Shown piece by piece: positions 606-47,513 of a stretch of 64,000 nt of DNA. Positions within the stretch are counted from its first letter, which is position 1, and each line of letters starts with the position of its first letter. Where the stretch lies: the NCBI GenBank assembly GCA_963727795.1, contig CAVSHC010000011.1, positions 903 through 64,902 of the forward strand, written 5' to 3'. The notes under the pieces are model-generated. The model ran no database searches. It worked only from the letters and a program-made list of their open reading frames with translations, and was not told where the DNA came from. This DNA comes from an uncultured Alphaproteobacteria bacterium. Lineage in GTDB: Bacteria > Pseudomonadota > Alphaproteobacteria > Rhizobiales > Rhodomicrobiaceae. Position numbers and translations under genes: made by a program.

Positions 606-841
606 TGTCCAGCCCGGAGACATAGGTCACGTTTTGTACCTAAGACATGGGTGACTTTCGAGAGATGCCGAACTCCCGGCAGAGATCGCTCATGCCCTCG
701 CCATCGAGAAGCCGAGCCACAAAACGAAGACGTTCCTCCATCGCCGAACACGCTTTCCACGGCATCAACACCCCCGCCAGAAAGCGAAAAGTGTTACCTA
801 TGTGTCCGGTACAAACTGTCACCTATGTCTCGGGTCGCTCA
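606..841 (-). mobile_element. Internally deleted IS481-family element (MITE-like, 236 bp)
   Basis: ~50-bp imperfect terminal inverted repeats, each with an internal doublet: TGTCCAGCCCGGAGACATAGGTCAC... at 606 and ...GTCACCTATGTCTCGGGTCGCTCA ending at 841. They flank a transposase 5' stub. Confidence 0.8.
640..765 (-). pseudogene. IS481-family transposase N-terminal stub (41 aa)
   Basis: MPWKACSAMEERLRFVARLLDGEGMSDLCREFGISRK matches the IS481 transposase HTH start, then runs directly into the terminal repeat. Confidence 0.8.
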
Positions 842-2124: not shown

Positions 2125-4195
2125 ATGCCAGGAAGGGTGGATTTTCGCGTCGAGGATGGCGTTGGCGTCGCATCGATTTCAAACCCGCCGGTGAACGCAC
2201 TCGGCATCGAGATCCGTCGCGGAGTGATGGCCGCGCTCGAAAAGTCGAGAAGGGACCCAGCCATCCAGGGCGTCATCCTGACGTCGGAGGGAAAGATTTT
2301 CAGCGGCGGGGCTGACATCGCTGAGTTCGATCGCCCTCCGATTGCTCCGATCCTGGCCGATGTCATCGCGGCCGTCGCTACTTTGGGCAAGCCCGTTGTC
2401 GCCGCCATGCAGGGAACGGCTCTCGGAGGCGCGGTCGAACTGGCGCTCGCTTGCACAGCGCGCATCGTAAGCCCCGGCGCTAGGCTGGGGCTGCCCGAGA
2501 TCAAGCTCGGCCTGATCCCGGGCGCCGGCGGCTCCCAGCGCCTCCCGCGCGCGATTGGCGCGGCGCCGGCCTTCGCCATGATGATCGAGGGCGATCCGAT
2601 ATCCGCGCGGCAAGCGTTAGATTGGGGCTTGTCGAGGGAATCGCCGAGGGAGACCTGATTGCCGCCGCGAAAACCAAAACGCTCGAACTTGCGTCCCGGC
2701 CGGCGTCCGCCGATGGCTCCGGCAGGCTGGCGCGCGAAGGCGAGCGCGCCGAGTTCGAGAAAGCCGCCGCGCGCGCCGCGAAGGAGCACGCGGGCAAGCC
2801 CAATATCGCGGCTTTGATCGAAGCGGTTCGCGCCGCCTTCGACAAACCGCTCCCGGAAGGTCTGGCCTTCGAGCGTCAGCTTTTCCTTAAACTGAGGGAC
2901 GATGAGCGCTCCACGGCTTTTCGTTACGCCTTCTTCGCGGAGCGCAAAGCGGGAAAGCTCAGGGACATGCCGCCCGAAACGGAGGCCCGGTCAATAACAC
3001 GCGCCGCCATCATCGGGGCCGGCACGATGGGAACCGGCATCGCGATCTGCTTCTTGAATGCCGGCATTCCCGTCACGCTGATCGAAGACAACCGGAACAC
3101 GCCCTCTCGAAAGGTTTCGATCGCATCAAGGCGATGCTTGACGATGGGGTGCGGCGCGGGAAATCGGCCCCGATGCGCGCGACAGACAGATCGCGCTTTT
3201 GAGCTCGAGTTTGAACCTTGAGGATGCCGCGGAAGCCGATCTCATCGTTGAGGCGGTCGTCGAGGACATGCAGGTCAAGAGGGAGATTTTTGCGAGGCTC
3301 GGCAGAATCGCAAAGCCGGGGGCGATCCTCGCGACGAACACCTCCTATCTCAACATCGACGAGATCGCCTCCGCGACCTGCCGGCCCGAACATGTGCTCG
3401 GCCTGCATTTCTTCAGCCCGGCGAATATCATGCGCCTCGTAGAGGTCGTCCGGGCGGAGAAAACGGCGTCGGAGGTTTTGAAAACGGCCGTCGACCTTGC
3501 GCGGAAGCTCGGCAAGGTTCCTGTCACAGTTGGCGTCTGCCATGGCTTCGCCGGCAACCGGATGCTCGCGCGGCGGCATCAGCAAGCGGAACGCCTTCTG
3601 ATCGAGGGCGCGCCGCCGCATCACATCGATGCGGCCATGGTGGAATTCGGCTTTCGCATGGGGCCGTTCGCCGTCGTCGATCTCGCCGGCCTCGACATCG
3701 GTTGGCGCATGCGCACGGCGACCGGCGCAAAGGCCGCCATCGCGGATGCGCTTTGCGAGCGCGGGCGGCTTCGGCCAGAAGACGGGCAAAGGCTACTACA
3801 TCTATTCCGAAGGCGCGCGCGAAGGCGTAGTGGACCCGGACGTTGAACGCTTGATCGAGGAGGTCTCCGCGACGCTCGGCGTGCAGCGCCGCGCAATTAC
3901 CGCCGCCGAAATCATCGAGCGCCTCATCTTCCCCATGGTGAATGAAGGCGCGCGCATCCTTAGCGAAGGCATTGCGGCGCGTGCCAGCGACATCGACGTG
4001 ATCTGGATGAACGGCTACGGATGGCCGGCCTGGCGGGGCGGCCCGATGTATTACGCAGATCGAGCGGGCCTGCCTTACGTGGTCGCGAGGCTTGAGACGT
4101 TTGCGGCGGCGGCCGGGGACGAAAGCCTGCTGCCTTCGCCTGTTCTGCGGGAGCTGGCGGAAGCCGGCCGCACATTCACCGAGGCTCACGCCTAA
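2125..4195 (+). pseudogene. Enoyl-CoA hydratase/3-hydroxyacyl-CoA dehydrogenase multifunctional enzyme (FadB/FadJ/PimF-like), four frameshifts (real decay or sequencing error)
   Basis: Crotonase motifs (NPPVNAL, FSGGADIAEF, GGAVELALAC, GLPEIKLGLIPGAGGSQRLPR), Rossmann GAGTMGTG, and HAD motifs ATNTS, GLHFFSPA, GFAGNR, GFGQKTGKGYY. These lie in different frames, with breaks at ~2625, ~3093, ~3162 and ~3770. Confidence 0.9.
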
Positions 4196-4278
4196 GAAAC
4201 GTTTTGCTGCGGGTCAGCGGGGGAGCGCAGCCGACAATTTCAATGAGCATGGTAATATGGAACCGCGCGAATCCTGCG

Positions 4279-4671
4279 TCAGCTCGGGGTCACCATCCGG
4301 CAGACTGCGACTGTGGCCTGGATCAGATCCCGCGGCAATGAAGGCTTGGTCAAGACTTTGGCTCTTGGCCAGTCGTTCTCGATCGCCGACGTATCCAGCA
4401 TTCCCGTGATGAAGACGATGCCCTTGCCTTTTTCATCAAGTATTCTTGCGATCGGAAAAGCGTCGCCACCCTTGAGCGTGACATCCAGCACTCCGCCATC
4501 GAGCTGCTCGGACTGTGCGAGCGACACGGCGCTCCGGACGCTCACAGCTGGCCCCACGATTTCCGCGCCAGCATCGCTAAGGGCGTCCGCAATATCGAGT
4601 ACAAGCAATGCATTGTCCTCGGCGACGAGTATACGGCAGCCGTCTAACGGCCTGCAAGCCGAACGGTCCAT
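4279..4671 (-). CDS. Single-domain response regulator (FAT GUY-like receiver)
   Basis: RILVAEDN...VLDVTL...FITG...VLTKP, with GGAGGA RBS before the ATG at 4671. Confidence 0.85.
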   Translation of the reverse strand: MDRSACRPLDGCRILVAEDNALLVLDIADALSDAGAEIVGPAVSVRSAVSLAQSEQLDGGVLDVTLKGGDAFPIARILDEKGKGIVFITGMLDTSAIENDWPRAKVLTKPSLPRDLIQATVAVCRMVTPS

Positions 4672-4852
4672 GGTTCCTCCCAAGCCCTTGATTTTAATTT
4701 ATTTTAGATCCAAGGGAAGGCGATGTTAGCGGCAGCCTTGCCTAAAATCAAGGCTGCAATTTCCGCGTGAATGGTAACGCTTGCTTTCACAGTCCTCCTT
4801 CTGCGCTGAATCAGCTAAGAACCACGGCCGATTGTCAAATTCGCTCCACGAG

Positions 4853-4985
4853 CAGGCCGCTGAAAAAGCCGGAAATCCTTGCTTCATCCTTCGACAAGCT
4901 CAGGATGAGGCCGAGCGATACCAACAGCTTGGACCTCATGGTGAGCTTTTCGAACCATGCGCCGCATGGTTTTTTCAGCATCCTC
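4853..4985. repeat. Repeat family A copy 1 (~130-bp MITE-like; CAGG..GCTGAAAAA termini enclosing a TTCGACAAGCTCA palindromic pair)
   Basis: Close copies at 29967-30072 (partial, reverse) and 43182-43313. This copy abuts the ChaN-like gene TAG stop. Confidence 0.8.
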
Positions 4986-6023
4986 CTAGCGTTCGCCAGC
5001 TTTCTTGGCCTTTTTCGCTTTCAGCTCTTTCTCCAGTTCGGCGCAGTGATCCGTCAGGTCCATTCTTGGCGTCAGATAAATGAAGTCGAAGGGTTGCTCC
5101 AGCCCTGGGGCCTTCTTCATGTAGGCCGATGGCTCAATGCGCTCGGGATCGACCTCGATAAAGGCGACCGAGACGACGGCGGCGTCCGGCAGCTTCCGGC
5201 GGATCGTGTGCGAAACGGCCCAGTCGTTGCGGACGTGTCCCGCTCCGGCGATCAAGACCGCACCTTCGCTCGCGTTTGCCTGCGTCATCGCGTTGGCGAG
5301 GGAGCCGTCCAGGGCGCGCTGCACGCGCAGCATGGGCTCCAACGCGGCGGCAGGCAGAAGATTGCAATGCCCGTCCTTGATCTCTTCGCCCTCCGCCTCG
5401 GCGATTTCCGGTTTCAGGGGCTCGGCAAGGTCGAAATCCTGGACGGCTTTTTCGAAGAGCGGCAGCGGCGCCTTTTTGGCGACCGCCTTTTGCGTGTCCG
5501 CGTCGAGCCCGCCCGCAAACAGGCGCAAGCCGGCCCCGAGCGCTGTCTCCGCAATGGGCTGGTAGATGATCCATTCGGGCCAGCCGTGCTCTTCCCATCG
5601 AAGTGCCTTTCCGAGCGCGCCGGCTGCGCCAGCGCCGCCTTGCGCGTGACGATCGAGTTCCGGCTGGAGGTTCGCAGGGACCATCTCGAAAACGACTGCG
5701 GGACGGCGGCCCTTTTTCACGAGCGCGGCGATGAGTTGAGCTTGCAACCGATGATGATCGGGATTGTCGTGGATCTCTCCGAGCAATACGAAGCGGGCTT
5801 TGGCCAAGGCGGTCTCAAGCTCGCCCGGCGTGACCTTTTGAAAGTCCGAGTTCCAGATCGTGCCGGCGAGAGGATGGTTCTGGAAATGCGGCGCAGCCCA
5901 CTTTTCCTCCGCGGCCACGGTATTTGGTGAAGGAAGGGGCGCGAGCGCCGCGACTGTGGCCAGGACAAGAAAGCCGGCCGGCGATGCAAGATTCCAAATC
6001 GCCGGGCCGCGCCCGTTCCTCAT
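4986..6023 (-). CDS. ChaN-family (haem-uptake/Tiki-like) exported protein
   Basis: Signal-peptide-like N-terminus. Motifs VLLGEIHDNPDHH, VVFEM, GHC and LIAGAGHVR. Confidence 0.8.
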   Translation of the reverse strand: MRNGRGPAIWNLASPAGFLVLATVAALAPLPSPNTVAAEEKWAAPHFQNHPLAGTIWNSDFQKVTPGELETALAKARFVLLGEIHDNPDHHRLQAQLIAALVKKGRRPAVVFEMVPANLQPELDRHAQGGAGAAGALGKALRWEEHGWPEWIIYQPIAETALGAGLRLFAGGLDADTQKAVAKKAPLPLFEKAVQDFDLAEPLKPEIAEAEGEEIKDGHCNLLPAAALEPMLRVQRALDGSLANAMTQANASEGAVLIAGAGHVRNDWAVSHTIRRKLPDAAVVSVAFIEVDPERIEPSAYMKKAPGLEQPFDFIYLTPRMDLTDHCAELEKELKAKKAKKAGER

Positions 6024-6261
6024 GCGCCTTATCGTTGTTTGACCGATCGTCTTCAATCCGCGCATTGCGCCGCTCTCAGGATGGAAGTGATGCCGAACTC
6101 CGCCCTTCAAGGCTCCCAATCTCTGCGCGTTGTCAAGCTGCGCCATCGTGCGTCCGGGGTTCGGCGGCGAAGCGGCTCCCTGCGAGACCTCTTCGGCGCG
6201 GCCGTCCGAGGCCGCACAAAGCCTCCGTCTGTCCTCTGAGGCGCCTGATTAAGAGATCATC

Positions 6262-7854
6262 TTACCGGCGGGCGACAACCTTGCATTCGTTGCCATTGAA
6301 AGATTTGCACTCGCTCAAAGCCGTCTCGTCGGCTTGTGAAGTGCTTGTATAGTTATACGAGTAGCCGCAGCCTCCGCTCTTTCCGGCTGCGAACGATCCG
6401 TGACGCTGCATGCGCAGCCATTTTTCCGCAGTCTTCTTGCACTCGGCGTCCAACTGCCAGTTTCCCTCGTCAGATTCGGTAATCCGGCATTCGGTTCCGC
6501 TCTTTTCGCATTCTTCCAATGCAGATTTCGTAGCCCCGGTTGGATTTATGTAATCGTACGACCAGCCACAACTGCCGTTGCGGGCTACGGCGAAGGCTCG
6601 GGCGGGTTCAAACTTCCGGAACTTTTCTAGCCCGGCCTTGCAGTCCTGGCTGAGTTCCCAGTCGCCTTGATCGACATCGTGTAGTCTACAATCGCCCGAG
6701 GCGCGCTCACAGACGACGAGCGCCTCGGTCTTGGCTTCTTCTAATTGCTTGCGGCCAGTTGATGACGCACACCACCCGCTTCGGGCGACGGCGAAGGCTT
6801 TTGCGGCCACTTCCGTTTTCCACTTGCTGTAGAAATCCTCGCAAGCAGGTTTGAGTGACCAATCACCCTCGGTAAGCTCAATAACCCGGCAGTCGCTGCC
6901 CCGAGCGTTGCATGCCTCCAGAGCCTTGTCTCGAGCAACCGACACTTTGAGAAGGTCGGAACTGGATCCGCAAACGGCGCCTTCGCTGTCGACAGCGAAA
7001 GCCCCAACGGCGGCCGATGACCGCCATTTTTTGAGTTGCTCACGGCATGCGGCTGTGAGTTGGACTTCAAATCCCGTCTTCTCACCATTCAGCCATAGCT
7101 CGATCTTCAGCCGCGAAAGCCGCTCGGGCTGCTGTGTGCCTTTGGTCGCCTTCTCCACCTCGGCGGTGACTTGTTTGAGCATCTGCTCCACTTCGAGCCC
7201 TTTTGTTTCGGCGTGCTTCAAAAACGCGGCCGTGAACGGGCTGTTGCGCCCGTCGCCGTCCTGCGCCTCCTGCCCGGGGGCGGCCGAATAAACCACCAGC
7301 ATATTACCCGCCGAAGCCTCGATGCGGCCCAGGCCCCGGCTCAAGGCTGGCGCGCGGCCTCGGCCTTTCAAGCTTTCACGGAGCCTGTCTGCAAGCGGAT
7401 TGCTGCGGCAGGCGTCGAGGATCACAATTCCGGCCTTGGCGGAGCTTTCCAGCGCAGTGACGATTTCTTGCGCCGCCACCGTTTCGCGCCGGATGGCGAA
7501 CTCGCTTTCGAGCTTGGCGTCCGTTGGCAAAAGATAGGCGCCACCTTCATATTGCAGGCCGTGGCCCGCATAATAGAACACGGCTATATCGGCGTCGCGT
7601 GCTTGTCCCATAAACTGGTCGATGGCCTTGACGAAGGCGGGGGCATCGGCGTCGAGCACAAGCGACGCATCGAAGCCGAGGCGCGTGAGCTTGGCGGCGA
7701 TATCGGTGGCGTCGTTGATGGGGTTGCCGAGCTTGCCGGCCGAAATGTAGGCGGAATTGCCGATGACGAGCGCAATTCGTTTTTCGGAGGCGGCGCCGGC
7801 AGTGGCGCCGAGGAAAAGAATTAGGATAGCAATCAAAGCGCGGGGCAGTGCCAT
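6262..7854 (-). CDS. Secreted caspase-family (peptidase C14) protein with four C-terminal Cys-rich repeats (DUF4189-like)
   Basis: Signal peptide, then RIALVIGNSAY, NPINDA, catalytic YYAGHG and ILDACR, YSAAPG and NSPFT. Four ~67-aa repeats with AFAV and four Cys each. Confidence 0.85.
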   Translation of the reverse strand: MALPRALIAILILFLGATAGAASEKRIALVIGNSAYISAGKLGNPINDATDIAAKLTRLGFDASLVLDADAPAFVKAIDQFMGQARDADIAVFYYAGHGLQYEGGAYLLPTDAKLESEFAIRRETVAAQEIVTALESSAKAGIVILDACRSNPLADRLRESLKGRGRAPALSRGLGRIEASAGNMLVVYSAAPGQEAQDGDGRNSPFTAAFLKHAETKGLEVEQMLKQVTAEVEKATKGTQQPERLSRLKIELWLNGEKTGFEVQLTAACREQLKKWRSSAAVGAFAVDSEGAVCGSSSDLLKVSVARDKALEACNARGSDCRVIELTEGDWSLKPACEDFYSKWKTEVAAKAFAVARSGWCASSTGRKQLEEAKTEALVVCERASGDCRLHDVDQGDWELSQDCKAGLEKFRKFEPARAFAVARNGSCGWSYDYINPTGATKSALEECEKSGTECRITESDEGNWQLDAECKKTAEKWLRMQRHGSFAAGKSGGCGYSYNYTSTSQADETALSECKSFNGNECKVVARR

Positions 7855-8196
7855 AATCTCGGCTTCCGTATCGTCTCTGGCGGCACCTTACCTATCGGGA
7901 TAGCTTTTGGGAATGTGGGGGCTTAGCGCGTTGCTTCCCAAGCAGATGCTTGTGACTATTTGGGTACATTTCGCAGACGGATCCGGACGGTTCGTCGCCG
8001 TCTGTTCGTTAGCGAAGCCATCCGCTTAGTATTCAAGTCCAAGATCGGTAATCGCGGGATTGAGCGCGCGTTCGCCAGAGGCTGAAGCGCGAGCCTCGCG
8101 CATTAACGCTTCACAGGGCCGGAACGATAAATTACCAATTAACGGCGGAGCGAAAAGCAGAACCAGAATTCCGGCGGAGGAAGCGCAGGCAGGCCG

Positions 8197-9267
8197 ATGA
8201 CAGAGGAAATCCAAGCCCGCCGCTGGGTCATGACCGCGGTTGGGGCGCCCTTGAGGAAAGAGCCTTTCGTGGCGCGGGCTGGCGCGGGCGAAGTCGTGAT
8301 CGCGGTCGCCGGATGCGGCCTTTGCCACACCGACCTCGGCTTTCTTTTCGATGGCGTGCGCACGAACCATCCGCTGCCGCTCACGCTCGGGCACGAAATC
8401 TCCGGACGCGTCGCCGCCGCCGGCGAAGGCGCGGAAGGCTGGCTTGGAAAGGCCGTCATCGTTCCGTCGGTCATGCCTTGCGGGGAGTGCGATGCGTGCC
8501 GGTGCGGCCTGTCGACCATCTGCCGGCGCCAAAAGATGCCGGGTAACGATATTCATGGCGGCTTCGCCTCTCATATCGTGGTCCCGGCCCGCGGTTTGTG
8601 CGTTGTCGATGAGCGCCGCCTCAGGAAAGCGGGCCTGAGCCTTGCTGACGTGTCCGTGGTCGCCGATGCAGTCACGACGCCTTATCAGGCGGTGCTTCGA
8701 GCAGGCGTTCGTCCCGGAGCCCTTGGCGTCGTCGTCGGCGTTGGGGGAATCGGCGGCTTTGCGGCGCAGATCGCCAAGGCGGCCGGGGCGACCGTCGTCG
8801 CCATCGACGTGGACGCCAAAAAGCTGGAAATCATGGACGGGGGAACGGCGGCCCTCACGCTGAACGCCCGCGACCACGATCAGAAGGCGTTGAAAGCTCG
8901 CATCGTCGAGTTCTGCAAGGCTCACGGCCTGCCACTGACCGAGTGGTTCATCTTCGAGTGCTCTGGGACGGCGGCGGGGCAGTTGACTGCGTTCGGCCTG
9001 CTGACCCATGGCGCGACGCTGAGCATTGTCGGCTTCACGATGGATCGCATCGAGGTCCGGCTTTCCAACCTCATGGCATACGACGCCCGCGCCATCGGCA
9101 ACTGGGGCTGTCCGCCCGAGTTCTACCCGGCGGCCCTCGGTCTGGCGCTCGACCGTCGCATCGAGCTTGCCGCTTTCGTCGAGAAGCATCCGCTGGACGA
9201 AATCGAGCGCGTGATCGCGGACGCCCGCGGGCGCCGGCTCACGCGCCGCGCCATCCTCGTTCCCTGA
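8197..9267 (+). CDS. had: 6-hydroxycyclohex-1-ene-1-carbonyl-CoA dehydrogenase
   Basis: Zn-MDR motifs CGLCHTD, GHE and [15 protein letters not shown]. The signature [16 protein letters not shown] and the operon context fit. Confidence 0.9.
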
Positions 9268-9290
9268 CCGATTATTGTTGGAGCCGTTTC

Positions 9291-10385
9291 ATGCCGGAGA
9301 CGCATCTCAAGGACCACGACATCGTCCCATTCGAGGCCGTTCCGAATGTCCGCTACGAGAAGCGGCCGGCGCGGCTGCCGGATGGCGAAATCGCCGAAGG
9401 TCTCTTCAACGCCTGGATCTGGCTCGACAATCCAAGCCAGTTCAATTCCTACACCACCGGCATGGTGAAAGGCGTGATCCGCGCCTTGCGCGCCGCGTCG
9501 AATGCGCGCGACGTCGTCGCCGTGGTGCTGACCGGCGCGGGCGACAAGGCGTTCTGCACCGGCGGCAACACCAAGGAATATGCCGAGTATTATGCGGGCA
9601 ACCCGCAGGAATACCGGCAGTATATGCGGCTCTTCAACGACATGGTCTCGGCGATCCTCGGCAGCGACAAGCCCGTCATCGCGCGCGTCAACGGCATGCG
9701 CATCGGCGGCGGCCAGGAGATCGGCATGGCCTGCGATTATTCCATCGCGCAAGACCTCGCCCGCTTCGGCCAGGCGGGACCGAAGCACGGCTCGGCCGCC
9801 ATCGGGGGCGCAACCGACTTTCTGCCGCTGATGGTTGGCGCAGAGCGCGCCATGGAGTCGGGCACGTTGTGCGAGCCGTGGTCCGCGCATAAGGCCTATC
9901 GCCTCGGCGTGATCCTCGATATCGCGCCCGCGCTGAAAGTGGATGGCGTCTTAGTCGCCAATCCGCTCGTCGAGACGGAGCGCTATCTCGACGAGTATGG
10001 CCGCATCGTCCACGGCGAGCCGAAGACCGGCGCGGCCCTCGAAAAGGGCAAGGCGCTGATGGCGCGCGGCGCCGTCGACTTGTCGCTTCTCGACGAGAAG
10101 GTCGAGGCGCTGTGCGCGAAGCTTCTTCTGACCTTCCCCGAATGCCTGACCAAGAGCCTGGAGGAGTTGCGCAAGCCGAAGCTTCAAGCCTGGAACGCCA
10201 ACAAGGAGGACAGCCGCGCGTGGCTCGCGCTGAACATGATGGCTGAAGCTCGCACCGGCTTCCGCGCCTTCAACGAAGGCCCGAAAAACAAACGCGAAAT
10301 CGATTTTGTCGAGCTTCGCCGGACTTTAGCGCGTGGAGAGCCTTGGACCGAGGCGCTTGTCGAGCGGCTCATCCCGAAAGCGTGA
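9291..10385 (+). CDS. oah: 6-oxocyclohex-1-ene-1-carbonyl-CoA hydrolase (BamA/Oah)
   Basis: FNSYTT, FCTGGNTKEYAEYYAGNPQEYRQYMRLFNDMVSAIL, GQAGPKHGS. Confidence 0.93.
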   Translation: MPETHLKDHDIVPFEAVPNVRYEKRPARLPDGEIAEGLFNAWIWLDNPSQFNSYTTGMVKGVIRALRAASNARDVVAVVLTGAGDKAFCTGGNTKEYAEYYAGNPQEYRQYMRLFNDMVSAILGSDKPVIARVNGMRIGGGQEIGMACDYSIAQDLARFGQAGPKHGSAAIGGATDFLPLMVGAERAMESGTLCEPWSAHKAYRLGVILDIAPALKVDGVLVANPLVETERYLDEYGRIVHGEPKTGAALEKGKALMARGAVDLSLLDEKVEALCAKLLLTFPECLTKSLEELRKPKLQAWNANKEDSRAWLALNMMAEARTGFRAFNEGPKNKREIDFVELRRTLARGEPWTEALVERLIPKA

Positions 10386-10395
10386 GGAGAGAGCG

Positions 10396-11163
10396 ATGGG
10401 CGAGCCTCTGAAAGTCTGGTTCGAGCGCGATGGGCGCCTCCTGCGCCTGCGCCTCGACCGCCCCACGGCGAACATCCTCGACGCCGCGCTCATGAGCGCG
10501 CTCGACGCCGCGCTTTTGGAGCATGGCGAGCGCCCCGGTTTGCTGGGCATTCTGATCGACGCCTCGGGTCAGCACTTTTCCTTTGGCGCGAGCGTCGAGG
10601 AGCATTTGCCCGGCCAGTGCGCCGCGATGCTTGCCGGGTTCCATCGGCTGATTTTGCGCGTGCTCGCCTCGCCGGTTCCGGTGATGGCGGCGGTGCGGGG
10701 ACAATGCCTTGGCGGCGGTCTGGAACTGGTTTCGGCCGCGCATCTCATTTTCGCCAGCTCCGATGCGCGGCTCGGGCAGCCCGAAATCCAGCTCGGTGTC
10801 TTTGCGCCCGCCGCGTCCTGCCTTCTTCCCGAACGCATCGGCCGGGCGGCGGCGGAAGACCTGCTGATCTCGGGCCGGTCCATCAAGGCGGAGGAGGCGA
10901 TTCGGCTCGGCCTCATCAACGAGATAGCGTCCGATCCCGAGGCCGCCGCGCTCGACTATTTCGACAGGCGCCTCGCTTCCAAGAGCCCAAGCTCGCTGCG
11001 GTTCGCCGTCCGGGCCGCGCGGAGCGCCTTCGTCGAGCGCGTAACCGTCGAACTGGCCCGCGCCGAGCGTCTGTATCTTTCCGATTTGATGGCGACGCGG
11101 GACGCCGTCGAAGGTCTGGAGGCCTTCCTTTCGAAAAGGCCCGCTCAATGGAGCAGCGCCTGA
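10396..11163 (+). CDS. dch: Cyclohexa-1,5-dienecarbonyl-CoA hydratase
   Basis: Crotonase with HFSFGASVEEH, CLGGGLE and LGQPEIQLGVFAP. It sits between oah and bcrC. Confidence 0.9.
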   Translation: MGEPLKVWFERDGRLLRLRLDRPTANILDAALMSALDAALLEHGERPGLLGILIDASGQHFSFGASVEEHLPGQCAAMLAGFHRLILRVLASPVPVMAAVRGQCLGGGLELVSAAHLIFASSDARLGQPEIQLGVFAPAASCLLPERIGRAAAEDLLISGRSIKAEEAIRLGLINEIASDPEAAALDYFDRRLASKSPSSLRFAVRAARSAFVERVTVELARAERLYLSDLMATRDAVEGLEAFLSKRPAQWSSA

Positions 11164-11164
11164 C

Positions 11165-12382
11165 ATGGCCGATGCCGTATCGTCACGCATCCGGGATGCA
11201 AGACCCCTCGGCGCACGGGAAATCGCCGCGTGCTGCGAAGCGATTTTCTCGGACCTCGATTTTGGCGCCGCCCGTCTTTGGAAGGGCGACGAGGCAGGCC
11301 GCAAGGTCATCGGATACATGCCCTTCTACGTGCCGCGCGAACTGATCCACGCCGCCGGCGCGTTTCCGCTCGGCATCGTGGGCGGAGGCGACAAGCTCGA
11401 AGTCATCCACGGCGACGCCTACTACCAGAGCTACATCTGCCGTATCCCGCGCTCGACGATTGAACTCGGCGTTTCGCGTCGTCTCGATTTTGTCGACGGC
11501 ATGCTTTTCCCCTCGATTTGCGACGTGATCCGCAATCTGTCGGGCATGTGGAAGCTCATGTTTCCGGCCGTTCCGGCGCGTTATGTCGATCTGCCCCAAA
11601 ACTTCGACGACGATGTCGGCGGCGCCTTCTATCGCTCCCACCTCGAAGATCTGCGCCATTGGCTTGCCGCGATTACGGGTCGGCTCGCGACGGATGACGC
11701 TCTGCGGGCGTCCATCGGCCTCTATAACGAGAACCGTGCGCTGATCCGGGAGCTTTACGCCTTGCGCGCGGCCATGCCCTGGAACGCGCCATCGGCGGAA
11801 GTCTACCTCTTGTTGCGCGCCGGGCTCTCGCTTCCCGTCGAGGCGCACAATCCGCTGGTCCGGGCCTATATCGATGCGGCGCGCGCACAGCAGCGTCCGG
11901 CGAGGGACAATGCGCGCGTGGTCGTCAACGGCGCGTTCTGCGAGCAGCCGCCGCTCAACCTCATCAAGGCGATCGAACTTTCGGGCTGCTACATCGTGGA
12001 TGACGATTTCATGCTCGTCACCCGCTGGGAGAAGTCCGATGTCGCGCTCGACGGCGATCCGATCGCCGCGCTTGCCAGCGCCTACCTCCACAACTCGATG
12101 TCGACCTCCGCGAAGTACGAGCCCGACGCCGCCAAGAAGGGCGCCTACCTCGTCGAAAGCGTGAGGGCCAACCGCGCCGAGGGCGTCATCTTCGCGATGC
12201 CGAGCTTCTGCGATCCGGCGCTGCTTGAGCGGCCGATGCTTCAGAACGCGCTGAAGGCCGCCGGCATCCCGTCCATAGCTTTCAAATACGCCGAGAACTC
12301 CGGACAGATGCAGCCCATTCGCGAGCAGGCCGGGACGTTTGCCGACTCGATCAAACTGTGGAGCGGAGAGTTAGGGGCTTGA
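11165..12382 (+). CDS. bcrC: Benzoyl-CoA reductase subunit C (class I)
   Basis: GYMPFYVPRELIHAAG, YYQSYICRIPRS, FPSICDVIRNL, SFCDPAL. Confidence 0.93.
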   Translation: MADAVSSRIRDARPLGAREIAACCEAIFSDLDFGAARLWKGDEAGRKVIGYMPFYVPRELIHAAGAFPLGIVGGGDKLEVIHGDAYYQSYICRIPRSTIELGVSRRLDFVDGMLFPSICDVIRNLSGMWKLMFPAVPARYVDLPQNFDDDVGGAFYRSHLEDLRHWLAAITGRLATDDALRASIGLYNENRALIRELYALRAAMPWNAPSAEVYLLLRAGLSLPVEAHNPLVRAYIDAARAQQRPARDNARVVVNGAFCEQPPLNLIKAIELSGCYIVDDDFMLVTRWEKSDVALDGDPIAALASAYLHNSMSTSAKYEPDAAKKGAYLVESVRANRAEGVIFAMPSFCDPALLERPMLQNALKAAGIPSIAFKYAENSGQMQPIREQAGTFADSIKLWSGELGA

Positions 12383-12399
12383 ACATGCGCTGTATCCCG

Positions 12400-12464
12400 T
12401 CACTCCGGTCGCGACCGTTGCAGCGTCGTTCCCTCTCCCAGAGGGAGAGGGACAGGGTGAGGGG
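12400..12464. repeat. Repeat family B (CCCTCTCCC..GGGAGAGGG / CCCTCACCC REP-like), half copy between bcrC and bcrB
   Basis: Matches the right half of the 40666-40778 palindrome. Confidence 0.75.
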
Positions 12465-12501
12465 ATACACCCCAGGAATTGACGCATTCAAGGAAGCATG
12501 A

Positions 12502-13815
12502 ATGAGCACGATCATTACACATCCGAAAGTTGCCAGGGCCGAGGCCGCCAAGGACGCCTCCATGCTCAAGCAGAAGGAGATGATCAACCGTCATTACGAC
12601 CGGCTCGCCGACGCGCCCGGGAGCGGCGAAAAGGTGGCCGCGACCTTCGTTCCGGGCAATCTCAACGAGCTTCTGATGTGCTTCGGCTTCGTGAACAATC
12701 TGCCGGAGGTCAACGCCATCCAGAACGGGCTCAGGAAGACCAGCGGCGCGTTTGTGATGGAGGCCGAGAAGATGGGCCACTCCGAGGACGTCTGCACCTA
12801 TGTGAAGTCCGACATCGGCATGATGGCGAAGGGCAACATCGGCCCAAACGGGCGCAAGCTGCCCGACCCGGATGTGCTGCTCCTCTCCTATACCGGCTGC
12901 TTCACCTTCATGAAGTGGTTCGAACTCCTGCGCGAGCAATACAAATGCGAAACGATCATGCTCCACACGCCTTATCTGGCCGACGGAGCGATCACGCCGG
13001 ACATGATCAAATATATGGTCAGGCAGCTTCGGACCGATGTCATCCCGAAGCTTGAGAAGGTCTCCGGCGTCAAGTTCGACATCGATCGCCTGCGCGAATA
13101 CCTCGCGAAATCGGCGCAGGCCGAAGACGATCTCGTCTGGGTGCTGCAATCGGCCAAGGCCAAGCCATCTCCCATCGACGCCTATTTCGGCGGCATCTAT
13201 TACATCGGCCCGATCTTCGGCGCCTTCCGCGGCACGGACGGCGCCATCGACTACTACCGTTTCTTGCGCGCGGAGATCGAGGAGCGCCTTGCGGAAGGCA
13301 AAGGCCCCGTGACGCCCGATGGCGACATGGGCGAGGAGCGCTTCCGGCTCGTGGTGGAAGGGCCGCCGAACTACACCAATTTCCGGCAATTCTGGAAGAT
13401 GTTCTACGCGGAGGGCGCCGTCGTCGTCGCTTCGAGCTACACAAAGGTCGGCGGCACCTACGATTTCGGTTTCCGGCACGATCCGTCCCGGCCGCTGGAA
13501 TCGCTCGCCGAATATTGCCTCAACGTCTATACCAACCGGAACCTGCCGATGCGGGTGGACATGCTCGAAAACTATGTCCGCGAGTATGAGGCCGACGGGC
13601 TTCTCATCAACTCCATCAAGAGCTGCAACAGCTTCTCCGCCGGCCAGTTGCTGATGATGCGCGAGGTGGAGAAGAGGACCGGCAAGCCGGCCGCCTTCAT
13701 CGAGACCGATCTCGTCGATCCGCGCTACTTCTCGCCCGCCAACGTGAAGAACCGGCTCGAAAGCTATTTCCAGATGATCGAGCAGAAGCGCGCAGGCGCC
13801 CGCGAGGTTGCGTGA
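12502..13815 (+). CDS. bcrB: Benzoyl-CoA reductase subunit B
   Basis: FVPGNLNEL, EDVCTYVK, SYTGCFTFMKWFE, SIKSCNSFS, IETDLVDPR. Confidence 0.93.
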   Translation: MSTIITHPKVARAEAAKDASMLKQKEMINRHYDRLADAPGSGEKVAATFVPGNLNELLMCFGFVNNLPEVNAIQNGLRKTSGAFVMEAEKMGHSEDVCTYVKSDIGMMAKGNIGPNGRKLPDPDVLLLSYTGCFTFMKWFELLREQYKCETIMLHTPYLADGAITPDMIKYMVRQLRTDVIPKLEKVSGVKFDIDRLREYLAKSAQAEDDLVWVLQSAKAKPSPIDAYFGGIYYIGPIFGAFRGTDGAIDYYRFLRAEIEERLAEGKGPVTPDGDMGEERFRLVVEGPPNYTNFRQFWKMFYAEGAVVVASSYTKVGGTYDFGFRHDPSRPLESLAEYCLNVYTNRNLPMRVDMLENYVREYEADGLLINSIKSCNSFSAGQLLMMREVEKRTGKPAAFIETDLVDPRYFSPANVKNRLESYFQMIEQKRAGAREVA

Positions 13816-13826
13816 ATAGAAGAAAG

Positions 13827-13997
13827 CCCCCCTCACCCGGCCGCTTCGCGGCCACCCTCTCCCGCAGCGGGGGAGGGTGTGTGCCGCTGAGAAGGCGTTC
13901 CCCTCTCCCATCCGCATCCGCTTGCGGATGCGGTTTCATGGAGTGGCAATCTCGCCAAGGCGAGACTGCGTGGGAGAGGGGACAGGGGTGAGGGGGT
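13827..13997. repeat. Repeat family B composite palindrome between bcrB and bcrA
   Basis: CCCCTCACCC...CCCTCTCCC and GGGAGAGGG...GGGTGAGGGG arms with an internal hairpin CCGCATCCGC-TT-GCGGATGCGG. Confidence 0.75.
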
Positions 13998-14022
13998 ACA
14001 GGTTTAAAAAAGAGACCGTTAA

Positions 14023-15336
14023 ATGAAGACTTTCATCGGCATCGATCTTGGCTCGACCACGACGAAAGCCGTGCTCATCGACGAAAGCCGGACCGTCATC
14101 GGGCGAGGCATCACCAACTCGCGCTCGAACTATGAAACCGCCGCCCGCGTCGCAAGCGAAGAGGCGCGGGTCGATGCGCGCTTCACGCTTCTCCGCCGCT
14201 CGCTCGAAACGGGCGAGACGCAGGCCGAAGCCGCCGCGTTCCTTGCCGCGCTCGAGCGGGCTTTCCGCCTCGAACAGTTCCTTGAGCAACTCGCCGACCT
14301 GGAGGCGACTTGCCTCAAGCAGCTTAAGACCGAGCGGTTCGCCCGCCTCGCCGAGCCGACAGGCAAGGCGATCGAGGCTGTGTTCGAAAGGTTGCGCGAA
14401 GAGGCGCCGGGACTTTATGCGCCGGGCGCGAAGCGCAAGTCGGACTTTTTTCGCGACAACGCCGGCTCGCGGTTTCACGCACATGCCGAGGCCGCCGCCA
14501 AAGACGCTCGCGCGCCGCTCGACATGCTGTTCAATGCCTATGACAAATCCATCATCGAGGTGGAGAATCGGCCGCCGGCCGGGAGCCTGTCCGAGAATTT
14601 CAAACGCGCCATGGCCCGCGTGCTCTCAAGCTGGGACGGCGCTGCGTCAGCGCCGCAGGAGCGCATCGAGCGCGCGCTCGGCGTTGAGCTGGAAGAAACC
14701 TGGCTCGTTGGCACGGGATATGGGCGGGTCACGCTGCCGTTCTCGAAGGAGCATATCCGCTCCGAGATCCTCTGCCATGGTCTCGGCGCGCACATGATGT
14801 ATCCGGGAACCCGCACGGTGCTCGACATCGGCGGCCAGGACACGAAAGGCATTCAGGTCGACGCCTGCGGCATCGTCGAAAATTTCCAGATGAACGACCG
14901 CTGCGCGGCGGGCTGCGGGCGCTATCTCGGCTATATCGCCGATGAGATGAACATCGGCGTGCATGAGCTTGGACCGATAGCGATGAGGTCCAGCCGCCCG
15001 GCGCACATCAACTCGACCTGCACCGTCTTCGCCGGAGCCGAGTTGCGCGACAGGCTCTCGCTCGGCGAGAAGCGGGAGGACATCCTGGCGGGCCTGCACC
15101 GCGCCATCATTCTGCGGGCCATCTCCATCATCGCGCGCTCGGGCGGGGTGACAAACGAGTTCACCTTCACAGGCGGCGTCGCCAAGAACGAGGCGGCGGT
15201 GCGCGAATTGCGCAAGCTGATCGGGGAAAACTACGGCGACGTCACCATCAACATCAATCCGGAATCCATCTACACAGGCGCGCTTGGAGCGGCGGAGTTC
15301 GCCCGGCGCGCCGCGCAAGAGCCTATCCACTTTTGA
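14023..15336 (+). CDS. bcrA: Benzoyl-CoA reductase subunit A (ATPase/activator)
   Basis: [11 protein letters not shown], helical insertion, [31 protein letters not shown]. Confidence 0.93.
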
Positions 15337-15354
15337 TGGAATCAAAAGCGGGCT

Positions 15355-15419
15355 CTAAGTTTTTGTTTTATCGTGCGTCTTATCGGAAAACCGCTTGGCG
15401 CTTTTCCGGACGCACTCTA
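15355..15419 (-). repeat. Repeat family C (rhizobial intergenic mosaic-like, TAGAGTGCGTCCGGAAAAG...), between bcrA and bcrD
   Basis: Reverse-complement copy of 29902-29966 and 42710-42777. Confidence 0.75.
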
Positions 15420-15437
15420 TCTTGAGGAGCGGCCGCA

Positions 15438-16280
15438 ATGCCCCTGACTGCTGGAATCGACGTTGGCGCGGGCGCCGTCAAGGTTGCGATCTTCGACGCC
15501 GCGGGAAGCCCGGCCGCATGGCTTGCGAAAGGGGCCGAGCGTATCCGGCAGCGCGACCCGCTCGTGCTCGCCGGGAAGCTCTACGACAGCCTTCTCGACG
15601 CGAATGGACTTCGACGCTCGGATATCGCGTATTGCGCGACGACAGGCGACGGCGAGGCGCTTCCTTTTCACACCGGCCACTTCTATTCGATGACGACCCA
15701 TGTTCGCGGCGCTCTCTACCTGCGCCCCGCAGCCCGCGCCGTTCTCGATGCCGGCGCGCTGCACGGCCGCGCCATCCGCATGGACGCGCGCGGCAAGGTG
15801 CTCGCCTACAAGATGACGAGCCAATGCGCGTCCGGCTCCGGCCAGTTCCTCGAAAACATCGCGCGCTATCTCGGCATCGCGCAGGACGAGATCGGAAGCC
15901 TTTCAAGGCAGGCCGGCGATCCGGAGAAAGTGTCGAGCATCTGCGCCGTTCTTGCGGAGACCGATGTCATCAACATGGTTTCGCGCGGCGTCACCGCCCC
16001 GAATATCCTCAAAGGCATCCACAACTCCATGGCCCACCGCCTCGCGAAGCTGTTGAAGTCCCTCGGCGGGCTCGACGGCGCGATCATGATGACGGGCGGC
16101 CTTGCGCTCGACGATGGGCTCGTCAACGCCATGAAGGAGGCCGTCGCGCGGGAGAAGATCGCTGCGCCGGTCGAAACGCACGCAGATGCGATCTATGCGG
16201 GCGCCATCGGGGCGGCGCTCTGGGGCGCCTTCCGCTGGGAGAAGCTGCAAGGCGCCCGCGAAACGGCAAACGCCGCGTGA
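15438..16280 (+). CDS. bcrD: Benzoyl-CoA reductase subunit D
   Basis: AGIDVGAGAVK, GHFYSMTTH, MTSQCASGSGQF, SSICAVLAETD. Confidence 0.93.
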   Translation: MPLTAGIDVGAGAVKVAIFDAAGSPAAWLAKGAERIRQRDPLVLAGKLYDSLLDANGLRRSDIAYCATTGDGEALPFHTGHFYSMTTHVRGALYLRPAARAVLDAGALHGRAIRMDARGKVLAYKMTSQCASGSGQFLENIARYLGIAQDEIGSLSRQAGDPEKVSSICAVLAETDVINMVSRGVTAPNILKGIHNSMAHRLAKLLKSLGGLDGAIMMTGGLALDDGLVNAMKEAVAREKIAAPVETHADAIYAGAIGAALWGAFRWEKLQGARETANAA

Positions 16281-16410
16281 GGGCATCATATCAAATCGTC
16301 ACCTTGGGCGAGTTCCGGGCAGCGATCCAACCCCGATCTAAATCGACACCATCATTCTGCGGGATGACCACCTCTCCGGGCTTACGCCCAAGAGCCGTCC
16401 GTTACACTAT

Positions 16411-16680
16411 CTAGTCGCAGAACAAGGGTACGAGGTGCAAATTGGTGAACAGCTGCAAAGGCTGACCTCTCAAGCCGACCACCCGAAGCCTGTGCCCGCT
16501 CGAAATCAGGCGCTTGTGGAGAAACACAAGAGCGCCAAGGCCTGAACTGTCCACGAACTCGACCTTTGAAAAATCGAGGGTGACATCCTCATCAGCCTGA
16601 GCGAGGCGCTCGATGTAGGGGCGCACGCGGGAAACGTAGGCGGCGTCGAGATCGTCGTCAATTTCATGCTGCTGAGACAT
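16411..16680 (-). CDS. STAS-domain anti-sigma factor antagonist
   Basis: VTLDFSKVEFVDSSGLGALV with the phosphorylatable Ser motif. Confidence 0.85.
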   Translation of the reverse strand: MSQQHEIDDDLDAAYVSRVRPYIERLAQADEDVTLDFSKVEFVDSSGLGALVFLHKRLISSGHRLRVVGLRGQPLQLFTNLHLVPLFCD

Positions 16681-16961
16681 GGGCCGGCTCGCTGACAGGG
16701 TGTTTTCGGGGTCCCAACCCTGAGCCGCCTGGCGCGCGGGGCGCCCGGTGCGCCTCCATGCACGTCATGGCTGCTTATGGTTGTATCCGGTCCTTGTCGT
16801 ATAAGCTTAACAAGATAAGGTTGGCTTAGGCTGTTAAAAGGAAATTGATTGAAATTGCGCGGTCCAAAGGCGCCGGGCCGAATGGGCCCCTGAAGCGCTT
16901 TGTGACCGGTATCGGAGTGAACCGGATGCGCCTCTTGCGCATTAACCCCAAATCAGGCGAA

Positions 16962-17039
16962 CTAGTGTGAAGTCTCGCAATTGCCCACACCCTTTGCAGC
17001 GGGCTCTCACAGGCAATTGCGAGACATAAGCCGCACTAG
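16962..17039. repeat. Repeat family D (~78-bp MITE-like, GTCTCGCAATTGCC inverted repeat, CTAG at both ends)
   Basis: Second copy in reverse orientation at 43104-43181. Confidence 0.75.
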
Positions 17040-17147
17040 CGATCCGAGTGTGGCGTTTGCGCGCCCTTACGTCACACTGGAGGGCAAATGCTGGAATCCG
17101 AAGGGCCGCAAGCCCTTCAAGAAACTGGGGATGATGGAAGGTTCCCG

Positions 17148-46052: not shown

Positions 46053-46739
46053 CTAAGCGGCTTCAGCAGCGTGCTGGCCGACGCCGGACTCTTTCTTATC
46101 GTCAGTTTGGGAGGCCGCTGCGCTTGCTTCCTGCGAGCCGGAAGTTAAGGCTTCCTCGCTCTTGACAAAGGGCGCCAGCGCAGTCTTGAGAGCTTCAGCC
46201 GCCTCCTGGGAATCGGGAAGAGCGCGCAGCATAGGTTCCGGCAAGGTAAACCGCCAGGGCCGTGCGTGGGGCCAAAGAATGAGATAAGCGATCTTATCCG
46301 GCCCTTTCAGGGCAAGCGCCAGATCGCCGGTTCCGTTGGCGTGCATCCTGAGCCCGACCGACTTGATGATCCGGAGCGGGACGTTGACCGCCTTGGTGAA
46401 GGCTATGCCGTAACGAAGCACAACGCGGCGCGTGGTGATGGTGTAGATGGTCGTCCTGGCGCAGAGATAGGCGAAGGTCATCGCGATCGTCACGACGATG
46501 CCGAGCAACGCCATATACCATGTATCGATCTCCAGCGCCTCACTCAGCGGCTTATTATCCGAGAGCCTGGAGAAGACCACCCAGGCCATCAGCATTACGA
46601 AGTAGAGCGTGATGAACCGGACATGGCAAAGATGAACTGCGAGGGATCGCCAGTTTGGCGACCCCTGCCACAGAATCCTCTCGTCTTCGGAAGGCCGGAA
46701 CGGGAGGCCCCGGACCGGCTCGAAGTCGTATTCACTCAT
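46053..46739 (-). CDS. puhB: Photosynthetic complex assembly protein PuhB
   Basis: EPVRGLP...ERILWQGSP, YTITTRRV, GTGD, LWPHARPW, EPMLR. Confidence 0.92.
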   Translation of the reverse strand: MSEYDFEPVRGLPFRPSEDERILWQGSPNWRSLAVHLCHVRFITLYFVMLMAWVVFSRLSDNKPLSEALEIDTWYMALLGIVVTIAMTFAYLCARTTIYTITTRRVVLRYGIAFTKAVNVPLRIIKSVGLRMHANGTGDLALALKGPDKIAYLILWPHARPWRFTLPEPMLRALPDSQEAAEALKTALAPFVKSEEALTSGSQEASAAASQTDDKKESGVGQHAAEAA

Positions 46740-47513
46740 ATAAGGGGCTCCTGACGGGACGGCTCGGCATACAGAATGCCACCGCCATAATAGGCCACCA
46801 CCTTATCTTCCTCAAGCAGCGTAATGCGGTCGGGGTTCGACAATGTCGGAGCCGCGGCGAACTGGCTTCCGAGGATCGATTCGACCTTCACGCGGCCCTT
46901 GCCCTGGTCGACCTTGGCGAAGCAGATCGGCAGGAGGACGCGCTTGCCGCCCTTAACTTCAACTTCGAGATAGCGGATGAGAACTTCCGAACGGTCGACC
47001 CAAACGTCGCGGACCGTGCCGCCAACCGCGCCGTCGGCGCCGATGACCGTAAAGCCGCGAGGATCGCGATCGTGCTCGTCGATGCTGAATTCGTTGGCGA
47101 CGCGCAAAGGAACAATCCGCGTGATGCCTTCAACCGTGAGGTCCGGCGTATTGGATCTCCAGAACCCAGGAACCGGGGCCGACGCCGTCCAGCATGGGAT
47201 TGCCTGTCGGGATCAAGGGCGAACCGCCGAAGGGGCTTGAAGGAACCGCTTTGATGGGGCGCTCTTTTTGAGATAGGGGCACAGACTGGGGAGAGGTTGA
47301 GGTGCCGCCGTGATAAAGCCGGAATATCTTCTTATCCGGGAGCATGAACCAGCCCGGGGTTTCTCTGCCGCCGCGGGGCTCGGAAACCAACGGATACCCT
47401 TCGCGCCGGTCTTCGCGCCGCAGGTAGATGATGAGGATCGCGAAGAAAATCCAGAACGCGTAAAGCACGACCTGAGCGACGTCGAGGTGAGTTGTTAAGG
47501 CGCCAACTGGCAT
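46736..47513 (-). CDS. puhA: Photosynthetic reaction centre H subunit (one-base insertion at ~47160)
   Basis: DVAQVVLYAFWIFFAILIIYLRREDRREGYP, GNPMLDGVGPGSW. Removing one G continues RSNTPDLTVEGITRIVPLRV into the 46736-47107 frame (DPRG, ITLLEEDK). Confidence 0.93.

Follow-up and report, generated by a model that had tools for sequence, protein, structure and literature searches.

A benzoyl-CoA reductase operon of the Bad lineage in Rhodomicrobium and its apparent lateral movement within and around the genus

A had-oah-dch-bcrCBAD operon in Rhodomicrobium

We analyzed 64,000 nucleotides (hereafter the window) of contig C11 (CAVSHC010000011.1) of an uncultured alphaproteobacterium (assembly GCA_963727795.1), focusing on a putative operon for benzoyl-CoA degradation. 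Seven co-directional genes on the plus strand, had, oah, dch, bcrC, bcrB, bcrA and bcrD, occupy exactly 8197-16280, from the start of had to the stop codon of bcrD. The host is a Rhodomicrobium: its BcrB and Oah fall in 90% clusters with members named 'MAG: Rhodomicrobium sp.', and the exact 364-aa Oah is on record. In the same GTDB genus, one genome (G004) has a BcrB identical to the NCBI protein from Rhodomicrobium vannielii ATCC 17100, and two others are those of Rhodomicrobium udaipurense JA643 (G011) and Rhodomicrobium lacus (G021). We refer to genomes of the GTDB genus of the window by G-numbers; its own genome is G000, and G030 and G043 are the closest relatives of its cluster.

Each gene was matched to curated NCBIfam equivalog models, and bit scores are given here against the cut-off of the model. 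All seven products scored far above their cut-offs in this profile search and covered nearly the entire model, with no internal stops. The first three genes, directly upstream of bcrCBAD, correspond to the enzymes of a Dch/Had/Oah lower pathway. The product of had (8197-9267, 356 aa) matches 6-hydroxycyclohex-1-ene-1-carbonyl-CoA dehydrogenase (TIGR03201, 537.8 bits against 338.65, model positions 1-349 of 349) and carries ADH_N and ADH_zinc_N domains; that of oah, or bamA (9291-10385, 364 aa), matches 6-oxocyclohex-1-ene-1-carbonyl-CoA hydrolase (TIGR03200, 635 bits against 464, positions 1-360 of 360); and that of dch (10396-11163, 255 aa) matches cyclohexa-1,5-diene-1-carbonyl-CoA hydratase (TIGR03189, 385.4 bits against 292.5, positions 1-249 of 251). 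The true start of oah is the ATG at 9291, as opposed to the open reading frame (ORF) start at 8943, and dch starts at 10396.

The remaining four genes correspond to benzoyl-CoA reductase subunit C (bcrC, 11165-12382; TIGR02263, 699.8 bits against 421; HGD-D domain), subunit B (bcrB, 12502-13815; TIGR02260, 865.8 bits against 487, positions 1-413 of 413), ATPase subunit A (bcrA, 14023-15336, 437 aa; TIGR02259, 766.6 bits against 578, positions 1-432 of 432) and ATPase subunit D (bcrD, 15438-16280, 280 aa; TIGR02261, 469.9 bits against 313). All four are thus above the class I Bcr/Bad equivalog cut-offs. Their lengths (405, 437, 437 and 280 aa for C, B, A and D), with a long A and a short D ATPase, have the make-up of that class, and the Pfam architecture of the seven products is as expected, with a zinc-dependent alcohol dehydrogenase, two crotonases, two HGD-D proteins and two BcrAD_BadFG proteins. 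The ratio of nonsynonymous to synonymous divergence (dN/dS) against four genus mates is 0.05-0.21 for all seven genes.

The original prediction, made from the letters of the window, that had-oah-dch-bcrCBAD is present and intact therefore holds, with seven full-length ORFs and equivalog matches for each. The operon very likely encodes a class I (ATP-dependent, Bcr/Bad-type) benzoyl-CoA reductase together with the Dch/Had/Oah ring-opening enzymes, in the standard alphaproteobacterial arrangement. It is an ordinary and probably functional operon, such as annotation pipelines already label by name, and it implies no new enzyme, fold or mechanism.

The order of reactions that follows is inferred from the established functions of the equivalog families, and the parts given to KorAB and to light as a supplier of ATP are likewise inferences. 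A benzoate-CoA ligase encoded on contig C3 would supply benzoyl-CoA, which BcrCBAD would reduce to cyclohexa-1,5-diene-1-carbonyl-CoA with reduced ferredoxin and ATP hydrolysis. Dch would then hydrate the diene, Had would oxidize the product, and Oah would open the ring to give 3-hydroxypimeloyl-CoA. Ferredoxin is probably recharged by KorAB, a 2-oxoglutarate:ferredoxin oxidoreductase encoded on contig C15, and light could provide the ATP if the photosystem works.

Gene order among relatives

Rhodopseudomonas palustris uses BadK, BadH and BadI to reach pimeloyl-CoA, and Thauera and Magnetospirillum use Dch, Had and Oah to reach 3-hydroxypimeloyl-CoA. We scanned BcrB relatives in one genome per species and kept the best 80 loci. 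In 61 of these, had-oah-dch lies directly upstream of bcrCBAD with near-identical spacing, and most of the remaining 19 are interrupted by contig ends. Records named Roseiarcus, Rhodopila and Rhodoplanes are among the 80. The full had-oah-dch-bcrCBAD order is also found in Rhodomicrobium vannielii ATCC 17100, Rhodomicrobium udaipurense and Rhodomicrobium lacus, and in Blastochloris sulfoviridis, Rhodospira trueperi and Magnetospirillum sp. XM-1. Rhodoblastus loci (L009 and L012), including that of Rhodoblastus sphagnicola DSM 16996, have oah-dch-bcrCBAD with no detectable had. A further locus, L104 of G024, has oah-dch-bcrCBAD without the zinc-dependent had and carries a BadH-like short-chain dehydrogenase/reductase (61%), a BadR-like regulator and korAB upstream instead.

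The Bad-type set of badK, aliB, badI and badH occurs in one of the 80 loci only, that of Rhodopseudomonas pseudopalustris DSM 123. We found no orthologue of BadI, BadH or AliB in the window's own genome, where the best tblastn matches (34-37% for BadI, 41% for BadH and 34% for AliB) are all generic paralogues. Hence the predicted lower route is Dch/Had/Oah and not BadK/H/I, with the gene order of Thauera, as originally proposed. The accompanying suggestion that such a route is notable in a purple phototroph did not survive the comparison: named phototrophs share the order of the 61 loci, and the Bad type is the rare one. As judged by gene order, had-oah-dch-bcrCBAD is the standard alphaproteobacterial layout, phototrophs included, and not a denitrifier speciality. 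This corrects a textbook bias, in that the model phototroph R. palustris would be the exception and Dch/Had/Oah beside a class I reductase the rule in alphaproteobacteria.

Parts of this picture can be found in the literature. The order had-oah-dch-bcrCBAD-fdx, in which fdx encodes a ferredoxin, has been reported for Thauera (PMC6449761), and in 2013 BamA/Oah of R. vannielii was placed with the enzymes of Geobacter, Magnetospirillum and Thauera (PMC3794298). Judging by its title as cited in PMC11946414, a 1991 article by Wright and Madigan dealt with the photocatabolism of aromatics in R. vannielii. Rhodomicrobium and benzoyl-CoA both go unmentioned in a review of purple non-sulfur bioremediation (PMC10439078).

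Compared with the cluster of Thauera aromatica and Magnetospirillum, the window has the same seven families in the same order and the same predicted route to 3-hydroxypimeloyl-CoA; it differs in having no fdx after bcrD, repeats in three operon spacers and no adjacent korAB. R. vannielii ATCC 17100, like R. udaipurense and R. lacus, has the genus, the gene order and a phototrophic host in common with the window, yet the R. vannielii genes are only 64-78% identical to those of the window at the protein level.

Two reductase lineages in one genus

We placed the window reductase in a BcrB tree of 108 rows, in which two deep clades lie on either side of a branch of length 0.38 and support 100. Clade I comprises Magnetospirillum, Blastochloris, Rhodoplanes serenus and Rhodospira together with the three Rhodomicrobium species in culture. 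In the other clade are BadE of R. pseudopalustris, Rhodoblastus, Roseiarcus and Rhodopila, along with many Xanthobacteraceae and Rhodobacterales and the BcrB of the window. Within it, the window BcrB and seven genus mates form a single clade (support 99). The window BcrB shows 88% identity with BadE of R. pseudopalustris but only 71% with BcrB of R. vannielii, and the nearest neighbors of Oah are the same as those of BcrB. Monophyly of the genus for BcrB was rejected, being 208 log-likelihood units worse (approximately unbiased test, p = 8e-67). A denitrifier-lineage reductase, as the original prediction had implied, is thus not what the tree places here: the window BcrB goes with R. pseudopalustris BadE and lies in a different deep clade from Magnetospirillum, whereas that of R. 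vannielii sits with Magnetospirillum, Blastochloris and Rhodospira.

The predicted window reductase is therefore one of the Bad lineage coupled to Dch/Had/Oah. Its resemblance to the R. palustris and R. pseudopalustris system extends to the host, likewise an alphaproteobacterial purple phototroph, and to the other subunits (BcrA 77%, BcrC 74% and BcrD 76% identical to R. pseudopalustris, besides BcrB). The lower pathway differs, being Dch/Had/Oah here with BadI, BadH and AliB missing genome-wide. The ligase, ferredoxin and korAB genes that follow badG in R. pseudopalustris are missing or located elsewhere in the genome of the window. R. pseudopalustris BadE is itself nested among loci with dch and oah (support 82-94), which suggests that the Bad lower pathway is a derived state.

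A close relative of BadDEFG with the other lower pathway could be useful for studying how cyclohex-1-ene-1-carboxyl-CoA arises in R. palustris. If our placement is right, the window enzyme and BadDEFG, with 88% identity in BcrB and different downstream routes, would make a natural test system for whether the reductase or a separate enzyme decides between the diene and the cyclohex-1-ene route. We note that badC of R. pseudopalustris (L007 7495-8610), at the position that dch takes in 61 other loci, encodes a protein of the medium-chain dehydrogenase/reductase family whose best profile matches are of quinone-oxidoreductase, acryloyl-CoA reductase and crotonyl-CoA reductase types. This protein could conceivably be the enzyme for the step from dienoyl-CoA to cyclohex-1-ene-carboxyl-CoA.

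Apparent lateral movement and probable relocation of the cassette

BcrB is present in 13 of 39 genomes of the genus. The genus holds both BcrB lineages, and no genome carries both. Synonymous divergence (dS) of the seven cluster genes against G030 and G043 is 0.26-0.48, whereas 24 backbone genes that are colinear between 16.4-64 kb of the window and contig C15 of G043 have a median dS of 1.04 (range 0.39-1.73). The site of the cluster also varies. In R. vannielii the bcr cluster lies at 40-47 kb and puhA, for the reaction-center H subunit, at 1.10 Mb; in G030 and G043 the two are on separate contigs.

The 3' boundary of the cluster carries a trace of a mobile element. Across the bcr block, G000 and G030/G043 are homologous only as far as the bcrD stop codon (16280-16281), and about 40 nt further on, at 16322-16414, lies a 93-nt solo end remnant of an insertion sequence (IS) of the IS110 family, which matches one end of a 1.5-kb element at 97-98% identity. 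The remnant is single-copy in its own genome. The 1.5-kb element, which encodes a transposase with DEDD_Tnp_IS110 and Transposase_20 domains, is present in two copies in G009 (99.8% identical) and one in G006. These copies lie at L116 4237-5763, L117 4459-5984 and L118 5361-6691. In G009 the 93 nt correspond to the transposase-upstream side, and a sequence resembling repetitive extragenic palindromic (REP) elements lies at the other end. We found no clean insertion site in the bcr-less genus mates G010 and G008, whose backbones are rearranged. An IS-linked rearrangement probably brought the cassette to its present position and, in doing so, severed it from the ferredoxin and ligase genes found behind bcrD in relatives.

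Within the genus and around it, the cassette appears to spread laterally. The horizontal acquisition raised in the original prediction is thus borne out in part: the patchy distribution, the two lineages, the dS discordance and the varying location agree with it, but the exchange would have taken place within the alphaproteobacteria and not from a denitrifier. We propose, tentatively and as an account whose chance of being right in full is somewhat less than even, that Rhodomicrobium holds two xenologous had-oah-dch-bcrCBAD cassettes, with no genome carrying both. One, of the Magnetospirillum/Blastochloris lineage, would belong to the cultured species. The other, of the BadDEFG lineage, would be that of this genome and nine others, exchanged far more recently than the species split and here brought to within 27 kb of the photosynthesis cluster through an IS110/REP-linked event. 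The added value of the locus is evolutionary, with two reductase lineages in one genus, a patchy cassette and dS discordance with the chromosome backbone.

Several observations weigh against our main reading, a class I operon of the Bad lineage that moves laterally. The BcrB tree took Magnetospirillum as its denitrifier reference, and Thauera was left out. Codon bias is strong in the cluster, with a G+C content at third codon positions (GC3) of 0.80-0.85, and may lower dS somewhat, as in EttA, which alone among the 24 backbone genes is as low as the cluster (dS 0.39, GC3 0.88). The backbone genes of similar GC3, bchH, thyA, hflC, tatC and bchP, have dS of 0.63-1.32, and codon bias is therefore not the cause of the dS gap. 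Further adverse points concern ferredoxin and broken genes. A dedicated Fdx/BadB ferredoxin of the 2[4Fe-4S] type is absent after bcrD, with no remnant there and none in the assembly. The best ferredoxin match, a 72-aa protein at C13:170809-171027, is 46-48% identical and has a nif-linked look, as judged by eye from its neighbor. Frameshifts in a fadB-like gene, a thiolase gene on contig C3 and puhA reflect either decay or assembly indels.

Completeness of the pathway

These gaps raise the question of whether the cluster is a relic in decay and has ceased to sustain growth on aromatics, its ferredoxin lost, its ligase separated and its beta-oxidation neighbors broken. Of 77 related loci with room for a BadB-type ferredoxin gene after bcrD, 68 have one, so that its lack in the window favors decay. 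Adjacent fdx is, however, also missing in the clade I loci of Blastochloris, Rhodospira and R. vannielii (for R. vannielii, by a BadB-type search only), as well as after bcrD in G030, G043, G022, two Rhodopila-like loci and the R. vannielii group. Another ferredoxin could serve, and the assembly is 92.8% complete, which leaves room for a ferredoxin gene in a gap.

The separated ligase also fits a relic. The benzoate-CoA ligase gene lies at C3:246973-248613 (TIGR02262, 458 bits), next to IS elements and to the end of the contig; the homologous 2.2 kb of G043, with the ligase, sits 0.8 kb downstream of bcrD. The surrounding C3:245575-255297 holds the ligase and a 156-aa gene, then a fragmented thiolase, with several transposase genes up to the contig end. 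KorAB is encoded at C15:716702-719822 with a rubrerythrin-like gene (by position) and is 66-73% identical to the R. pseudopalustris pair. The claim that the cluster is complete was accordingly too strong, with no fdx after bcrD and the ligase gene on another contig.

Broken genes around the cluster, together with repeats inside it, can be read as decay as well. Besides the C3 thiolase, a fadB/fadJ-like gene for enoyl-CoA hydratase/3-hydroxyacyl-CoA dehydrogenase at 2125-4189 on the plus strand is in at least five frame pieces (tblastn of G030 ORFs, frames 1, 3, 2, 1 and 2; a FadJ/FadB profile matches one piece). REP-like repeats fill all three bcrCBAD spacers, where bcr genes of other families abut within about 15 nt. 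The bcrC-bcrB spacer (12383-12501) holds a dispersed palindromic repeat with 69 blastn matches in its own genome; the bcrB-bcrA spacer (13816-14022) has 51 matches, with copies also in other genomes of the genus; and the bcrA-bcrD spacer (15337-15437) has 110. In the closest relatives, G030 (L109) and G043 (L110), frameshifts lie in bcrB and, depending on the genome, in had, dch, bcrC or bcrD. As they hit different genes in each genome, a pattern typical of assembly indels, they are probably long-read assembly errors and not shared pseudogenes. Set against the seven full-length ORFs of the window and their low dN/dS, we consider it unlikely that the cluster is a relic, and we prefer an intact, probably functional operon.

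Photosynthesis cluster and integrity of the contig

A photosynthesis gene cluster shares the window with the bcr operon, as originally noted. At 43314-63957, profile matches identify puhE, acsF, puhB, puhA, a PucC-family gene, bchH, bchB, bchN, bchF, ppsR, a second PucC-family gene and bchP, in an order colinear with contig C15 of G043. The products of bchH, bchB, bchN, bchF, bchP, acsF, puhB, puhE and ppsR scored above cut-off, consistent with the gene cluster of a purple phototroph. The exception to its integrity is puhA, which is split by a single frameshift into 46736-47107 and 47130-47513 on the minus strand. The pieces correspond to model positions 2-118 and 119-262 in different frames, and puhA is intact in all 19 other genomes of the genus that carry it. 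The frameshift may mark a genuine loss of phototrophy, or it may be an indel of the assembly. Across the genus, puhA occurs in 20 of 39 species genomes, and about half of the genus appears to be non-phototrophic or incompletely assembled.

We considered whether the bcr genes and the photosynthesis cluster are functionally linked and rejected this. Adjacency is found only in this genome, and across the genus BcrB and puhA are distributed independently of each other (both in 7 of the 39 genomes, BcrB only in 6, puhA only in 13 and neither in 13). The nearness of the two clusters looks accidental.

The same nearness might instead be an artefact of assembly or binning that joined a cluster from another organism, or from another part of the genome, to this contig. 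The bcr block does sit close to the left end of contig C11, synteny to G030 and G043 is lost at its 3' boundary, and bcr and puhA are on different contigs in both of those genomes. The junction between bcrD and the STAS gene points the other way, since 16281-16960 is unique in the assembly, and a repeat-driven mis-join there is therefore excluded. The right side of the window (16.4-64 kb) is colinear with contig C15 of G043, GC content is even across the window, and the IS110 remnant offers a biological cause for the breakpoint. Moreover, the REP families of the operon spacers have 51-110 copies on the genome's other contigs; with host repeats inside the operon, the cluster is resident in this genome, and contamination in binning was ruled out. 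We therefore regard an artefact as highly improbable and retain a genuine relocation of the cassette as the better explanation of the boundary.

It is scarcely credible that the reductase acts on substituted benzoyl-CoA as an Mbd-type methylbenzoyl-CoA reductase, which the original prediction had raised, or that it is of the Azoarcus Bzd type: MbdO and BzdO are the only solved relatives that a search of the PDB gave, and MbdO, the better of the two, reaches only 203 bits (BzdO, 61 bits); Bzd profiles give 65-146 bits against cut-offs of 380-454, compared with 470-866 bits for the Bcr equivalogs. Both types were ruled out by the scores of the BzdNOPQ profiles, MbdO and BzdO.

Flanking regions and regulatory features

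The intergenic region upstream of had (7855-8196, plus strand) presumably holds the promoter, and G043 shares its final ~100 nt (84% identity over 101 nt). We found no consensus sigma-70 site on the plus strand of 7855-8196, and a promoter and terminator scan gave nothing exceeding the shuffled expectation. No Rfam family scored above threshold in 7800-17100; the bcrA-bcrD spacer gave a partial, far sub-threshold match to the Brucella small RNA CI408. No tRNA that might mark an island attachment site was found near the cluster.

To the left, the fadB-like gene has 85% DNA identity to its counterpart in G030 and G043, where it adjoins had directly as part of the shared block. In the window, the two are separated by a 3.9-kb insert (4186-8117) that appears as a synteny gap against G030 and G043, in which it is absent. 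The insert carries genes for a ChaN-like haem-binding protein (4986-6146, minus strand; PF04187) and a caspase-like protein (6262-7854, minus strand; NF047832). Farther left, 187 nt of the window (655-841) recur at 98% identity next to the bcr locus of G044 (L106 639-826), and are probably a further mobile-element fragment near the left edge of the block.

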